A stretch of DNA of 63,965 nucleotides, filler included, from Theionarchaea archaeon (GTDB lineage: Archaea > Methanobacteriota_B > Thermococci > Methanofastidiosales > SZ-28-30), in the NCBI GenBank assembly GCA_018992565.1. It is 3 parts of 3 records of this genome, joined end to end, with 100 filler letters (N's around TTAATTAATTAA, not from the genome) between each part and the next. Parts side by side here need not be neighbours in the genome. Positions count along the whole stretch, not along the records: positions 1 to 21,429 come from JACVGW010000047.1; 2 more parts are not named here. One strand, 5' to 3'. A program made the position numbers. This document shows positions 6,001 through 12,000 of this stretch, piece by piece. Position 1 is the first letter of the stretch, and the number at the start of each line of letters is the position of its first letter.

Positions 6001-9000
6001 AAGTGACCCCGGGCAAACCGAGCAGCACAATAGGTGCAGGAACCTAAACATCCTTCAGAAATTGGAATGATGGCGTTGACTCCATCTCCTACGCGAGGAT
6101 AGCACAGTTTGTTCTTTTTTTCGTCTCTAATAATGTGAACAGCACTCCCTTCTCTGACTTTTTGAACAGCCTCAACAATATCATAAACATTAGTCCCTAC
6201 AACATTGACATCCAGGTCAGATATCTTGGGAAGACATCCTGCCACAATCAAGGGCTTATTGGTGGCCTTGATTTCTTCAATCCGTTTTCTTATCTTGTGT
6301 TCAGTGGGTCCTTTTACCCCACAGGAATTTATAATGGCAATATCTGCTTCTTCTAGACTTTCTGTAATTTGAGGACGGAGTAAAGCCTTGATGATTTCTG
6401 AATCTGCCTTATTCATGGTGCAGCCATAGGTTTCCAAATAGATTGACATTTATTGGAGAGGGGCATGGAAATATATAACAGTTATTGACGTTCCAGAGTG
6501 CTGACCAGGGCACGTCGAGATGGCATTCTTGCCCTCATGTATCTAGTGGCTCTCGCGTGGAACATTCGCCAGCCATCCTCAGCATGAAAAGAGCAGGTAT
6601 GCCCAACAGAATCACTGCTGATGCTGCATACCATGAACTAATAATGGAAGTATATTCTGCAATCAAACCAAATATAATGAGTCCCAGAGCTGCAGCTCCT
6701 CTGCACATCATGGAATCAAATGAAAGAATTGTTGCCCTTGTTTCTGCTGGTATGTGGTCATTTATATAGGCTTTCCGGGTGGGAAGCATAACGCCTCTCC
6801 CCATGAAGTAAAAGAAGAAAACAGGTAGCGACAGTATGAAGTAGTTTGATAGTGCCAGTCCCAGAGATGTTGCAGCACAAACAAGAGTTGAAACAATCAA
6901 TATCTGGTACCGTTTGAATAATGATGTCCAGTGCACCAGAAGACTTCCGGCCATCAATCCAAGCGATAGGGCGACCCAGGCAAACCCTACCTCTTGGGTA
7001 TTGGCAATTTCCTGAAAGTATGGCTGCCAGTACTGCATCACAGCCATGTATGCAAACATTGAGATCGCACCAGGTATGATCAGAAGCAACACAACCTTGT
7101 TCTTCACGCCGTAGGTCACGCTGAATCCGATGATTTTTCTCATTCGTGATACTCCGTTTCTCAGAGACAGGGATTCTTTTTCCAAGTACACCTCATCCAT
7201 CAAGACGTATCCCATCCAGAGGGTTGCCAGAGCCAGAAAAGCTCCTCCCAGGAAGGGAAATGCCAGGTTGTATGAGCCCAAGAATGCTCCAAACAGACCA
7301 GCGGCAATTGATACACCGCTGGTGAGCGTGGCAGCTCTTCCAAAGAGCCTGTCTTTCTTCTGTGTATACCCATTCATGTCCAGAGAGTCCACAAACCATG
7401 CTTCCAGTGCACCTGAGTGGAAGGTCATCCCAATGGCAGCCACCACTTCAGCCATGGCAAACAAGAGAAAGGAGCCGGAGAAAAAGTATATGAGAAAAGA
7501 GAGAGACATGAACATGCAGGCGATCAGGAAAGAACGTTTGCGTCCAAACATATCTGATACAGCACCCGTTGGAATCTCCAGAAGGAATACGCTCCCCATG
7601 TAAAAGATGTTTACAAGGTTGACTTGTAACAGATTTAACCCTTTGGATAGCATAAAAAGTATGTTTGTAGCCTGGATGGTATTCACTGACAGCATAAAAA
7701 AGCATTCCATCAGGTAAAACGTGAGCACTGTCTTCTTTAGTCTATCTATGATGCTCACCCTCGGGCCTCTCCTTCAAGAAAGGATAGTAGTACCGAGCAG
7801 ACTCACTGAGAACTTCTCCCACATCAGTGCAGTAGGGCCTCCCGATGCCCTCCCCCTTTTCAGCGGCAAGCTTGGTACACCCTCCGCCGCATACAAGCGC
7901 CAGGTTGCAGGATTTGCACTCAGGAATGTGAAGGATACTCCTGTTTCTCCACTGCCCCAGTGCGCTTTCATCTATTTCGAGAGTGGGAAAGAATCGTCCG
8001 ATTTTGTACTCTTCAACGCCGGCGCAATTAACACAGGTATATACATCCCCCTTTAAGTCAAAACAAAAGCGAGTCATATTCGCTCCACAAAACTTGAACT
8101 GGGGAGATGGCAGCTGGTCAGTTTCCAGGGCCTTTCTGAAGATTTCCGCCCCAACCCATCCAATAAGGTGGATGACACGCATCTCCTGGTAATTCCGGTA
8201 CAGGTCGTAGATCTGGTGTAACGCAACATGCTCTGGCAGCCTGTGCCTGTATTCCATGCAACTGATGTCTCTCATGGGGGCCATGTAGGGTACAATCAAC
8301 TTGTTTTCTTCCCAGCCCTGTTCTATGAAAAACCGAGCCAGCTCAGGTAGAAGGGCCAAATTCTGAGCATCCACATTGATGCGGATAGCCATCTTTATGT
8401 TGTTGTCCACAGCTTTCTGGATTCCTCTAATGATGGGGGTGAAGGTTCCACTGGTCTTGGGTGATATGCGCCTCTTGTTGTGCATCGTCTCCGGCCCGTC
8501 CACTGTAACCTGAATAAACTCCAGGTCATAGGAGGACAGCATGTCAACATAGGATTCAAGTTCCACGCCGTTTGAGACTATCTTTGGCTTCCATCCACGA
8601 TTACTACTCTCATCAAGAATCTTCTTGATGACTTCGAATTGCCTCTTACTCTTCAGGAGCGGTTCTCCTCCGAATATTACAAAGTAGGGGAGTTCTTTGG
8701 ATGGTGATTTTTCTTGAAGATAGTCCATGCTCTCAAACGCAGCGTGAAGGCATTGATCATCAATAACCACATTTTTCCGAGCCGAGTGATCCTGAAAGCA
8801 GTAGCTACATCGAAGGTTGCACGCATAGGTGGGGTACAGATAAAAAACGGGAAGACTCATCTTGATTTTCTGCTCATACTCTCTGAATCGGTAGTTCAGA
8901 TATTTCTCTTCGTATTCTTCCGTTTCGAACACGTATCCCTTTCTCTTCAACGTGGTCAGTGTATCGCCATTATTGACTTTTTCACCACGTTCCACTCTCC

Positions 9001-12000
9001 TGAGAATGTCCACCACATCATCATCAACAATATCCATGGCGGATGACAGGTTATTCATTAAAATATACATTCCTTTTTCGTCCACTGGGAACAACAAATT
9101 ATAACGACTGAGATGCATGTTATGCTAACCTCCCTCTGCTTTTTTCTTTATCAAGGGGTAGTAGTAATGAAACCCGAGATTCAATATCTGATGTATCCCC
9201 ACACAGGGACTGGCCTGCAGTGAACCATATTTGGTTACTGCAATGAATGTACAACCTCCCCCACACAGGAGGTTGTAAGAACAAGTGCTGCACTTAGGAA
9301 GTGTCAGAATATTCCTGGTTTTCCACTGGTCCAGCAATTCAGTATAGAACTCAAGGTCAGGTGAATACCTCCCAATGATCTGGCTCTTCTCCCCTGCGAA
9401 TCCAGCGCACGCATAGATGTCCCCGAATGTGTCAAAACACAAGCGTTTCATTCCAGCACCGCAGAAGTTGAAGAGTGGAGAATACAGCCATCCCTTCTTT
9501 ATGAGATTCTCTATGCTTTCCATCCACCTCCATCCCATGAGGGTGATGATTTTTGTTTCTGGGTTGTTGGTATACATTTTCAGTATTGTCTTCAGTAACT
9601 GGGGGAGTGGAATGACGTTTTCCTGTCCAATGCATCCAGAATCTCTCACAGCTGCAATATACGGAGTAATTAACCCCGTGTCTCTCCAGCCTCTTTCTAT
9701 GATAAATGAGGCCATTTCAGGTAATGAGTGGAGGTTCTCCTTGTCTACATTGATTCGCAGTGCGATATGCATTCCTACTTCTTTCAACACTTTGTCTACA
9801 TTATCTGCAATCTTGTCAAAACTTCCAGACCCGTCTGCGAATATTCTCCTCTTGTTATGAATATCTCTCGGTCCATCCAGGGTGACCTGGATATGTTTGT
9901 CTACATATTTCTGGATTGTGTCTATGTAGTGATTGAGATCAACCCCATTAGTGATAATTTTTGAGTGAAATCCACTATCTTGGCATTTCTTCAAAATATA
10001 GGTGACCGCATCTTTCTGCTCTTTGCGGTACATCAGTGGCTCTCCTCCAAACAAGGTGAGCAGGGGTTGTCCTTTGGATCCTCCCTCTGCATGGATTTTT
10101 TCCATGACTTCAAACGCCCTATCAACGAGACGTGGCTTGATGACATCTCCCTTCCTCATGTCCTCTGTCTGAAAACAGTAGGTGCAGCGCAGGTTGCATC
10201 CATATGTCGGATAGATAAAGAAGGACTCAGGCTCTAAAGCAAGGTTCTTACTCCACTGTTCAAATGCTTCTGTAATCAACCTTTCTTCATCTTCTTTTTT
10301 TCCATAGATGTACCTTCTCTTTGCCAATTCATGAAGTATTTCCGTCGTACCTGTTAGCTTCCCTTTCCGTAGGTTCTTGATGACATTGATGACCTCTGCG
10401 TCAACAATGTCGACAGCTCCTGAAAGAGGATTTACCAAGATAATGTCCTCTGTATCAGAAATAGGAAAAAAGAAAGTATAACGACTGACGTACATAGTAA
10501 TCACCAAATCCGGCACTGTGTGTCTTATGGCCCAGCAACTCCATGTATTCAGAAAGTTGGCTGAACTTCAAGAGCACAGAAAGTTGGCTGAACTTCAAGA
10601 GCACAGAAAGTTGGCTGAACTTCAAGAGCACAGAAAGTTGGCTGAACTTCAAGAGCACAATAGAGTGTTCCACTCTCGTCTCTCAAATTGAGATTCTTAT
10701 CACTGACCACAGATTTCATGAACATGTGTTCACCTCCTAAGGATTTCTTTTTTCTAGTCCAGAAGAGTATTTAAAGTTATGGTTGCCCGACTCTCGAGTG
10801 GATAGGGTGTTCATGTACTAATACTGATTGTTGTTGACAAATCCAGAGGATTATTCAAGAAGTCCCAATTCAGAATAACCCCAACCTTTTCCTCATGATC
10901 ACCTGCAGCATTCGAAGCCCTGTTTTCACATTCTGCACCTTCCCAGCGGAATGTTTTGATTCCCCTCCACGTCTCCTGCAGTATGTAACTGGAATTTCAG
11001 TCACTGTCATATCCGCTTTCAGGGTTTCAACCATCATCTCTACAGAGAAAGGTGCTCCCTCGGCCCGCATATTGTCCCGAATTCTCTGGTAGGTCCACTT
11101 CCACAGCCCCCGGTACGTGCACCCCACATCGGTGAATGAAGCTCCCTTATTACACCATAACACACTCACCAGCTTTCCCAAAGCTCTGTTTCCCCATCTC
11201 AAGAACCAGTCCATGTTAGCTCCCTGTTCAATCATGCTTTTGGAGGTCCTGGTCCCCACCACCATGTCAGCCTCTTTTAGCTGCTCCACAATGCTGGGAA
11301 GATCCTTCGATCTAAAAGAGTGATCTGACTCTGTTATCACTACTATGTCTTCCTTTGCAGCGTCCATACCGCATTTGAGTGCATTCCCATACCCCTGTCT
11401 TGGTTCTGATACGACTCGAGCCCCTTCCTTTTCAGCAATTTTCGCTGTCCCATCAACGGAATTATTATCTACTACGATGATTTCAGCCACTGGTGTGCGA
11501 GAGAAATCGTCTATGACTCTCTTGATAGAGGCTTCCTCATTATATGCAGGCATCACAACAGAAATCGAATACGAATCAAAATGAGACCGTCGCCATTGGT
11601 ACGTGGCCCGATTCAAGTCATGTATTGTATTAATATTTGTATAGAACCCTTCCAGAAAGAAGGCATACACCTTAGATTCCTGGTGGGCGAGCGTATCAAT
11701 GACATCAGTAATCTCGATTTCATTTCGTAGAGAGGAGGGAGAAGCATTCCTGATGTAGTCAAATATCAGTGGGGTAAACGCATAGGTGCCGACTCCCAGG
11801 AGATCAGTCCCGGGTGAACCAGGCTTTTCTATCACAGAGAGTATTCTGTCACCTTCAAGGCGTGCAGTATAATTCTGCTGGATGGCTTTCAGATCATCTG
11901 TCTCTTGAAAGGCACAGATAGCATTGAAGTCACGGGAGAACAGTGAGAGCATATCCTGATGGTTGGTGTCAATATACATTTCGTCCCCCAGGATGACAAA

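Follow-up and report, generated by a model that had tools for sequence, protein, structure and literature searches.

As a class, ranthipeptides are defined by their chemistry, a thioether that links a cysteine sulfur to the acceptor residue at a carbon other than the alpha carbon. In the freyrasin precursor PapA the motif Cys-X3-Asp occurs six times and one enzyme is enough, PapB alone sufficing for many thioethers. A 2025 survey describes radical-SAM-modified peptide clusters as predicted across Archaea and, in its available text, counts few archaeal RiPP products as identified (PMC12144867). One characterised archaeal SPASM enzyme, CrpC of Methanococcus voltae, forms thioethers on repeated C-X-X-D/Q-type motifs; the available sections of that report place them in the CAGM, CAVD, CAGD and CPLV motifs of the repeat substrate, and name QhpD as an enzyme that makes Cys-Glu links (PMC13692751). 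For the bacterial TIG pathway, the available sections show that the authors read the precursor TigB, much as we read the precursor described here, as giving several identical products, and that a GYW motif is strictly conserved in cyclopropyl synthases (TvgB/TigE), its Tyr being a ligand of auxiliary cluster I (PMC10878394).

Here we describe a four-gene locus in the window, that is, the whole stretch of DNA analysed (63,965 nucleotides including filler, from Theionarchaea archaeon assembly GCA_018992565.1). The host is an uncultured sediment archaeon. A first-pass annotation had reported a 58-aa ORF, made of a 22-aa leader and four copies of CALEVQPTF, upstream of two paralogous radical-SAM enzymes and an MFS gene. 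We recovered each of these elements, all on the same strand, with the following layout:

10768..10775, minus strand: putative promoter element, a TATA-like box TTTAAATA some 43 nt ahead of the precursor ATG
10731..10737, minus strand: Shine-Dalgarno-like GGAGGTG, 5 nt upstream of the precursor ATG
10549..10725, minus strand: precursor ORF, 58 aa, leader MFMKSVVSDKNLNLRDESGTLY followed by CALEVQPTF x4
10660..10725, minus strand: leader part of the precursor gene, 22 codons
10552..10659, minus strand: repeat core, four identical 27-nt units, each encoding CALEVQPTF
10525..10551, minus strand: TGA stop plus 24 nt, probably the decayed remnant of an ancestral terminal unit of CALEVAVP type
9125..10495, minus strand: maturase A, an RRE, radical SAM and SPASM protein of 456 aa if it starts at the ATG at 10495, 53 nt past the precursor; alternative GTG start at 10516
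7742..9118, minus strand: maturase B (paralogous RRE, radical SAM, SPASM), 458 aa, starting 6 nt past the A stop
6535..7758, minus strand: MFS transporter, 407 aa (MFS_1, 1.6e-25), overlapping the end of B by 17 nt

The start of maturase A at 10495 is probable, as GGTGAT and the ATG are conserved in a same-genus genome (G001) and database forms are 456 aa long. A bacterial sigma-70 promoter and terminator scan was disregarded, the host being an archaeon.

Tandem Repeats Finder placed the repeat at 10550..10659 (period 27, 4.1 copies, 100% matches, score 220), and each unit supplies one Cys and one Glu and no more. Four reading frames are open across it, and the matches of a precursor profile search included many long repeat proteins, singletons with the look of translated minisatellites. 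The small ORF might thus be a chance frame over a minisatellite, or a regulatory leader, with the enzymes acting on something else. Comparison with G001 (loci L002/L033) makes this hardly credible. That genome carries a maturase A orthologue 87% identical to ours, an MFS gene 85% identical in the same position and, as previously claimed, the same leader followed by five CALEVQPTF units and CALEVAVP. Only the CALEVQPTF frame has an ATG with a conserved ribosome-binding site: all 15 nt before it, TTAGGAGGTGAACAC, are shared with G001 against an otherwise diverged upstream region, and a block AACCA-TAA..T.TAAATACTC is kept in G001 as TCTAAATA. The leaders differ at 12 nucleotides, nine of them synonymous and three falling in two changed codons (K10E, R15K), a pattern of purifying selection. 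The repeat units differ at two fixed synonymous sites each; read in any of the three remaining open frames, the same changes would give a different peptide. Because the differences between species are almost all synonymous, we conclude that the small ORF is a real gene under selection, the first of a tightly packed operon. The nearest enzyme relatives, in a bacterium and at a paralogous locus, have its motif upstream as well (see below).

A genome-wide scan found an in-frame perfect repeat beside a paralogous maturase gene, of which this genome has about 29, at the precursor locus only, and none of 592 candidates was a longer form of the precursor. Neither Pfam nor NCBIfam has a model for this precursor or for eight other candidate precursors (rows at E <= 10 were at chance level), and a protein Atlas search gave scores of at most 0.77. 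Of the 36 profile-search matches at E <= 0.001, only P0002 covered the leader; the others matched the repeat part only. Eleven of these were inspected and proved to be long repeat proteins, and six that we looked up were singletons or belonged to a two-member cluster, some on very long contigs. We set the repeat-only matches aside as unverified look-alikes.

The peptide had been proposed to be conserved between relatives with a varying copy number, and four orthologous precursors bear this out: they have 4, 6, 4 and 3 units, with CALEV in every unit and the leader kept (it occurs in P0001 and P0002). Unit count is therefore fluid between relatives. At the locus itself, where the assembly gives four units, the Logan contigs from four runs end within the repeat region (10579 / 10630). 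The depth of repeat words relative to flanks was 3.0-3.75 (X1), 1.9-2.3 (X4), 4.5 (X9) and 4.3 (X10), against the value of about 2-3 that we calculate for four units with words of length 31. Such depths agree with 3 to about 6 units, or with a unit common to related strains. Downstream of the fourth unit, 10525..10551 aligns codon for codon with the last G001 unit and its stop, a TGA replacing the Cys codon TGT, and a terminal unit thus appears to have been lost by a nonsense change. A reading of this TGA as selenocysteine was rejected: ALE is lost in the next codons, and no SelD at or above cut-off was found in the genome, which is 88% complete.

The two enzymes are 39% identical to each other over 455 columns, as had been reported, and the earlier count of relatives was reproduced, with matches to maturase A at E <= 1e-40 in 12 of the 133 genomes of the phylum. 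Their description as SPASM-type holds in a qualified form. The Pfam SPASM model matches neither A nor B, for which Pfam reports only Radical_SAM (1.7e-21 and 2.2e-13) and Fer4_12, and we therefore base the assignment on full-length NCBIfam matches and cysteine motifs. In A the CX3CX2C motif reads CNLRCTYC, in B CNLRCSYC. Both enzymes also carry CX2CX5CX3C, as do the two G001 enzymes, the two enzymes of a Nitrospira locus and a further paralogue in the same genome (the C132 paralogue). A C-terminal set of seven Cys (C345, C363, C402, C405, C411, C415, C431), as called for by the SPASM pattern CX9-15GX4C ... CX2CX5CX3C ... C, is invariant in 11 sequences. An extra invariant cysteine, C288 in the 456-aa form, aligns with a Tyr in CteB, so that auxiliary cluster I may be fully ligated, unlike in CteB. 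In the AlphaFold model of A (pLDDT 89.7), the N-terminus is predicted to form a winged-helix RRE fold of three strands (8-11, 18-22, 27-31) and three helices (33-43, 51-59, 67-87), all at pLDDT > 90. Sequence (5.3e-24, residues 27-424) and fold (E 3.8e-21, TM 0.63-0.69) both give CteB as the best solved relative of A, the alignment to CteB beginning at its residue 18, RRE included. Other fold matches were TigE (8vpo), SuiB, ChlB and SkfB.

Both enzymes gave full-length matches to the CefB, TIGR04463, Clo7bot, PapB, geopeptide and SCIFF maturase profiles, at scores far below every curated family cut-off. CefB (NF038107) was the best-scoring curated profile and matched end to end, with 169.4 bits for A and 158.9 for B against a cut-off of 600 (1e-49 and 2e-46). 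PapB (NF047865) gave 133.3 and 118.1 bits against 340 (1e-38 and 5e-34), TIGR04463, the CrpC family, 130.8 and 135.1 against 525 (second or third best), and the SCIFF maturase TIGR03974 110.7 and 85.3 against 425. Paenibacillus and Clostridium rows considered as PapB relatives were dropped, as they fell below the PapB cut-off. These profiles, together with CteB, support the view that A and B most closely resemble thioether-forming maturases. The MFS protein has weak matches of Tet(40)/TetA(P) type, far below cut-offs.

The nearest enzyme relatives likewise sit downstream of peptides with an aromatic-Cys-Ala motif. A Nitrospira metagenome-assembled genome has a peptide with a single FCAL, two maturases and AzlCD, AzlC beginning 2 nt past the second enzyme, and the C132 paralogue follows a peptide with three FCATLPxE sites separated by unlike linkers. 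In a quick tree of 51 rows, A and B fall into one group (98) with the Nitrospira pair, the C132 paralogue and the metagenome proteins P0011 and P0012. The FCAL and FCATLPxE motifs come from those group members whose loci could be read. A regular-expression scan for aromatic-Cys-Ala ORFs over loci L021-L191 gave 14 rows, and only those at L033 and L034 lie directly upstream of an enzyme gene. A more careful 18-row tree did not settle orthology between B and the second Nitrospira enzyme. Scanning metagenomes with the enzyme alignment returned no relative above 36% identity, and scans for the loci of P0012 and P0029 gave nothing usable, so that these scans yielded no precursor for the enzyme relatives at 70%, 66%, 43% and 40% identity. 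The closest enzyme relative outside the lineage is the bacterial one from Nitrospira.

We propose, at a probability of roughly 45%, that the operon makes a ribosomal, enzyme-modified peptide in which every unit acquires a Cys thioether ring before release as several copies of a small cyclic peptide and export by the MFS protein. The leader would dock on the predicted N-terminal RRE domains of both maturases, and each of the four identical units would be an independent modification site, with aromatic-Cys-Ala-Leu-Glu-Val as the conserved site. One maturase would take a hydrogen from a side-chain carbon near the Cys, most likely that of the Glu at +3, and the radical carbon would be joined to the Cys sulfur, giving one four-residue (C-A-L-E) thioether ring of ranthionine type per unit. 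The second maturase may add a further modification or share the work with the first. That single characterised enzymes such as CrpC suffice for many thioethers counts against the proposal, which gives the second enzyme no definite task, as do the scores far below the family cut-offs and the possibly fully ligated auxiliary cluster I.

The chemistry could also differ while precursor and maturases remain as described: a Calpha (sactionine) link, a carbon-carbon link from the aromatic before the Cys, epimerisation, cyclopropanation of the conserved Val, or possibly two different reactions. An aromatic (Tyr or Phe) or Met-Phe before the Cys and an Ala after it are constant in all units of all three precursor types, whereas the putative acceptor Glu shifts in position: Nitrospira has CALM, with Glu at +10, and C132 has CATL, with Glu at +6, which counts against Glu as the acceptor. 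Two paralogues at 39% identity suggest two tasks, and similar SPASM enzymes perform many reactions, TigE, SuiB, ChlB and SkfB being among the fold matches. However, sactisynthase profiles score much lower than ranthipeptide-type ones (StsB 3.3e-17 for A and RumMC 3e-14 for B, against 1e-34 to 1e-49 for CefB, PapB and TIGR04463), cyclophane profiles (YhhB, GrrM/OscB) reach only 1e-14 to 1e-17, the cyclopropyl-synthase GYW motif is present in none of the 51 aligned maturase rows, A and B included, and Cys is the one invariant reactive residue of each unit. We consider a different chemistry unlikely, and retain the side-chain thioether.

As to the final form of the product, the earlier reading of a multi-core RiPP precursor with its maturases and exporter stands insofar as a selected gene with repeated identical units in variable number heads an operon with two RRE-radical SAM-SPASM maturases and an exporter. 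Its separate units are less secure, since we found no protease gene in or beside the operon, past the maturases of the G001 locus (L006) or among the Nitrospira genes at that locus; the nearest peptidase to the operon is an M48 fusion some 8 kb off. The same enzymes might instead cross-link each unit in an uncut core; once the leader was removed, the product would be one peptide of 36 residues bearing four small rings, comparable to freyrasin or to the CrpA repeat region. The ten repeats of CrpA are modified in place, according to the available text (PMC13692751), and the unlike linkers between the C132 sites are a pattern typical of sites in one product. Against an uncut core, MFS and AzlCD proteins are carriers of small substrates. 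Microcin C, pantocin A and bottromycin, RiPPs that leave the cell through MFS proteins, are all of about 1 kDa or less. Moreover, a change in unit number or the loss of a terminal unit, both of which this lineage appears to have undergone, would alter a single-piece product and would affect a multi-copy product only in yield. We regard an uncut core as a possible but doubtful alternative. Release as small copies is favoured because a transporter of small-molecule type follows the second enzyme both here and in Nitrospira, and because unit number drifts from 3 to 6 while unit sequence is strictly kept. A protease encoded elsewhere would cut the units free, and the resulting copies of one small cyclic peptide would leave through the co-translated MFS transporter.

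Extending this proposal to the whole aromatic-Cys-Ala clade is more speculative, and we hold it with rather little confidence: the clade would make a new kind of diffusible small molecule. Two radical reactions in succession would cyclise each unit, which would then be cut back to a core resistant to proteases and exported by a small-molecule carrier. Repeat number would set the dose of this archaeal compound, a signal or a metal binder, and would evolve fast, and the module would have moved between Archaea and Nitrospira. More generally, the product of the locus is most likely a secreted, cross-linked peptide; such peptides are known from bacteria and barely studied in archaea. The locus also brings to light an uncurated clade of enzymes whose substrate motif can be recognised, in a genome rich in maturase paralogues, and, with one substrate of 58 aa, two enzymes and a single transporter, it is compact enough to synthesise. 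Since natural variants differ in unit number and the bacterial counterpart has one unit only, both the chemistry and the role of the second enzyme are directly testable.

The first-pass annotation had called this a new radical-SAM RiPP family from Archaea, which overstates the case given the Nitrospira FCAL relative and the precedents of CrpC/CrpA (PMC13692751) and TigB (PMC10878394), as far as the available texts describe them. Like our maturases, CrpC is an archaeal RRE, radical SAM and SPASM enzyme (TIGR04463), and CrpA likewise joins an N-terminal leader-like part to a C-terminal array of repeated Cys motifs; its four-residue thioether motifs CAGM, CAVD and CAGD begin with Cys-Ala, as does CALE here. 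However, CrpC, the one archaeal SPASM thioether enzyme we found characterised, acts on a large Cys-rich protein with a 17-residue motif repeated ten times and several Cys per repeat, whereas the substrate here has 58 aa and four Cys, one per nine-residue unit; the available text describes one enzyme and no transporter, in contrast to two enzymes and an MFS protein here (PMC13692751). The TIG pathway likewise combines a precursor of about 60 aa, TigB, in which a short motif occurs up to five times, with two radical SAM enzymes (TigD, TigE) and a transporter (TigA), but it is bacterial, and its TIGSVS motif has no Cys, methyl-cyclopropylglycine being formed on Ile, as the available sections report (PMC10878394). 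The thioether-type profiles and CteB as nearest relatives link the locus, indirectly, to ranthipeptide systems. CefB is a Cys-every-fifth maturase, on which our literature search found no paper, and Cys recurs every ninth residue here. SCIFF maturase CteB (PDB 5WGG, 5WHY; thioether from Cys to Thr) resembles A over its full length, RRE included, at about 21% identity, although the core of SCIFF precursors is short, lacks repeats and carries six Cys. Freyrasin, like our precursor, repeats a motif of Cys and an acidic residue, each freyrasin site being cross-linked by a radical SAM/SPASM enzyme, with Cys-X3-Asp there and Cys-X2-Glu here.

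The locus is a real, well-delimited modified-peptide operon, in which a short repetitive precursor gene is followed by two paralogous radical SAM genes and a transporter gene:

10549..10725, minus strand: precursor ORF, encoding MFMKSVVSDKNLNLRDESGTLY and then CALEVQPTF four times
9125..10516, minus strand: radical SAM gene (maturase A), directly downstream of the precursor
7742..9118, minus strand: radical SAM gene (maturase B), downstream of A
6535..7758, minus strand: MFS gene, downstream of B

This is the layout proposed by the first-pass annotation. ORF translation and Tandem Repeats Finder (27-nt period, 4.1 copies, 100% matches at 10550..10659) bear out the leader and four CALEVQPTF copies, and the two radical SAM genes and the MFS gene do lie directly downstream on the same strand. 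The peptide stop lies 53 nt from the start of A, the A stop 6 nt from the start of B, and the start of the MFS gene overlaps B by 17 nt. Its other claims were reproduced as well: an orthologous enzyme in the sister genome (87% identical) behind the same leader, five CALEVQPTF copies and CALEVAVP; 39% identity between A and B; and relatives in 12 of 133 genomes of the phylum at E <= 1e-40. The sister MFS protein occupies the same position and is 85% identical.

The flanking genes look unrelated to the operon. Three of them are:

10870..12309, minus strand: sugar-1-phosphate nucleotidyltransferase/GT2 glycosyltransferase fusion of AglF/AglJ type, upstream flank
12460..15006, plus strand: multi-pass membrane protein of 848 aa, without a Pfam match, adjoining the fusion gene
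18622..21222, minus strand: M48 peptidase with a prenyltransferase alpha-alpha toroid domain, 866 aa, ~8 kb from the operon

The fusion gene and the membrane protein gene may form an N-glycosylation unit; in the sister genome, too, the former neighbours the peptide gene. The downstream flank holds a MiaB-like methylthiotransferase gene and a second MFS gene. Further out from the operon lie pyrB/pyrI, a dihydroorotase-like amidohydrolase and an Hdr-like CCG protein. Contig C128 of this genome makes up positions 1..21429 of the window, other pieces following between N runs (seven runs, 476 N in all).

The repeat is free of stops in four frames, so an open frame by itself is no proof of a precursor gene. 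Only the precursor frame among these has an ATG with GGAGGTG 5 nt before it. A TTTAAATA box lies ~43 nt upstream of this ATG; the TATA-like block is kept in the sister genome, as are all 15 nt preceding the ATG, while the remaining upstream region has diverged. The two leaders differ at 12 nt; nine of these changes are synonymous and the other three give the conservative replacements K10E and R15K. Each unit differs from the sister units by the same two synonymous changes (GTT/GTC and ACT/ACA), which alter the peptide in the other open frames. Because units are uniform inside each genome (4/4 here, 5/5 full units in the sister) and differ synonymously between them, these sequences indicate that in each lineage the array was homogenised or has expanded recently, with the peptide held constant.

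A search of 5.8 billion proteins returned two precursor relatives among 108 candidates. Both share the leader, with cores of three CALEVQPTF plus CALEVMVP and two CALEVQPTF plus CALEVMVP, so that the four known precursors, window and sister included, carry 4, 6, 4 and 3 CALEV units. CALEV is kept in every unit, and the last unit lacks QPTF in three of the four precursors. The window retains a trace of such an ending:

10525..10551, minus strand: vestige of a terminal, fifth unit of CALEVAVP type, comprising the precursor stop codon and the next 24 nt

These 27 nt can be aligned to the last sister unit one codon at a time. Where the sister has TGT for Cys, the window has TGA, and the codons for ALE after it have decayed; from this we infer that the terminal unit was lost here by a nonsense change. 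Reading this TGA as selenocysteine is unlikely, again given the decayed ALE codons. The stretch is present in 20 of 23 listed public runs, from six studies of sediment, soil and mangrove metagenomes, and contigs from runs holding it end at the repeat. Repeat words reach 1.9 to 4.5 times the depth of the flanks, in keeping with ~3 to 6 units or with units common to several strains; a number of exactly four in this organism is thus plausible, short of proof.

Both maturases carry CX3CX2C and a SPASM CX2CX5CX3C block, and seven SPASM cysteines are invariant across an 11-sequence alignment. NCBIfam peptide-maturase profiles match A and B end to end (CefB at 1e-49 / 2e-46; also PapB, TIGR04463, Clo7bot, geopeptide, SCIFF, DynA and QhpD-type), with every score well short of the curated cut-off; profiles of other kinds, sactisynthase and cyclophane ones among them, score much lower still. 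The best solved relative of A by sequence is CteB, the SCIFF thioether synthase (5.3e-24, query residues 27-424). Foldseek with an AlphaFold model of A (mean pLDDT 89.7) also placed CteB first (E 3.8e-21, TM 0.63-0.69), ahead of anSME, ChlB, TigE, SuiB and SkfB, and the first 90 residues of the model show the layout usual for an RRE, with three strands and three helices. Translation of A probably starts at 10495, since GGTGAT and the ATG are kept in both genomes and database forms are 456 aa long.

Orthologues of A occur at 87, 83, 83, 70 and 66% identity, and the next relatives reach only 44-45%. One of the latter (45%) sits in a Nitrospira MAG (L034), behind a peptide gene whose leader can be aligned to the archaeal one, with VS, L and DE conserved:

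L034 2815..2928: 37-aa peptide with one FCAL, encoding MLYPIVSTEDLTFNTETDEYASMFCALMPSMKTLEEA, with a strong RBS
L034 2992..4377: first maturase, 45% identical to A, downstream of the peptide
L034 4392..5822: second, paralogous maturase, 39% identical to B and 46% to its neighbour
L034 5824..6546: AzlC, starting 2 nt after the second maturase
L034 6474..6851: AzlD, after AzlC

A divergent HTH regulator lies upstream of this locus. The closest paralogue of A in its own genome outside the operon (36% identity) is on contig C132 (L010), where a 79-aa ORF bears three FCATLP(S/G)E sites at a 17-residue spacing, joined by unlike linkers:

L010 956..1195, plus strand: 79-aa ORF with the three sites, upstream of the maturase
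L010 1257..2597: paralogous maturase
L010 2598..3734: 378-aa protein with no Pfam match
L010 3731..4075: B12-binding-domain protein

An MBL-fold hydrolase lies upstream in this locus. In a quick maximum-likelihood tree of 51 maturases, which took in 30 of 37 places with seven weak or partial ones left out, one group (support 98) unites A and its orthologues, B, the C132 enzyme, both Nitrospira enzymes and two metagenome proteins, and stands apart from two other paralogue groups of this genome. A careful 18-row tree puts the first Nitrospira enzyme sister to A with moderate support (83/91). When every other fetched locus was scanned, no further peptide of the aromatic-Cys-Ala type turned up directly upstream of an enzyme gene. 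P0143, a 168-aa metagenome singleton on a 751-nt contig, has a GRDP-like N-terminal domain ahead of seven nine-residue units of AFCSLAAKP type; its aromatic-Cys repeat is similar, but the protein may be unrelated.

More broadly, 29 places in this genome (88% complete, 2.8 Mb) match A at E <= 1e-20, compared with 14 and 6 in the two same-genus genomes. Many are tandem pairs and, judged by eye, at least ten places are accompanied by a small Cys-rich ORF. Contigs with matches outside the window include C13, C29, C30, C62, C71, C105, C140 and C154; the Cys-rich ORFs on C71 include three MKCEKVE...CPPYPCGCINI-type peptides, and peptides on C13, C29 and C30 have an MKAISLNKKLW leader. Leaders of this last type also occur upstream of maturases in Clostridia and Actinomycetota loci, and the leader of our precursor, MKSVVSDKNL, resembles the Clostridium leader MKSINSDKNLW. 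Small ORFs upstream of related maturases at bacterial loci L039, L040, L042, L043, L053 and L058 share a K-S-(L/I)-N-x-x-K/D-x-L-W type leader and have Cys/Trp-rich cores, e.g. CCW. No Pfam or NCBIfam model matches the cassette peptides of this genome or of these bacterial loci.

The architecture and nearest relatives suggest leader-guided maturases that would act on a repeated site. Cys is the only invariant reactive residue of that site, in every case with Tyr or Phe before it and Ala after it. Each unit contains exactly one Cys and one Glu, in the order C-A-L-E, and this arrangement, together with the precedents of CrpC, a characterised archaeal enzyme that forms thioethers within CAGM, CAVD, CAGD and CPLV of a repeat substrate, and QhpD, which makes Cys-Glu and Cys-Asp links (PMC13692751), leads us to infer one Cys-to-Glu(+3) thioether ring per unit. 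Glu as acceptor is weakened by its varying position in the related motifs. The modified core might stay uncut as one four-ring peptide, as would suit the C132 layout and an operon to which no protease gene belongs. We favour release of unit-sized products from the precursor, given the fluid unit count, the dispensable last unit, the single-unit bacterial version and the tightly coupled small-substrate carriers at two distant loci (MFS in the window, AzlCD in Nitrospira).

Literature searches covering archaeal ranthipeptides, repeat precursors and genome mining for archaeal SPASM proteins turned up no account of this peptide or its enzyme clade; the papers listed for Theionarchaea with radical SAM do not, by their listings, concern such peptides, and no paper was found on 'Cys-every-fifth'. 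According to a 2025 survey, clusters of the ranthipeptide and sactipeptide types are widely predicted in Archaea, where few RiPP products have been identified (PMC12144867). The characterised archaeal case we found is CrpC/CrpA (2026), and the supplements of that paper list other archaeal radical-SAM-associated Cys-rich proteins, among which relatives could occur (PMC13692751). The bacterial TIG pathway combines a transporter and two radical SAM enzymes with a 60-aa precursor whose motif occurs in as many as five copies; it shares the gene logic of the window operon but differs in chemistry (PMC10878394), and its GYW signature is absent from the window maturases. Within a known kind of system, the operon represents a precursor family that is new and an enzyme clade that is uncurated.
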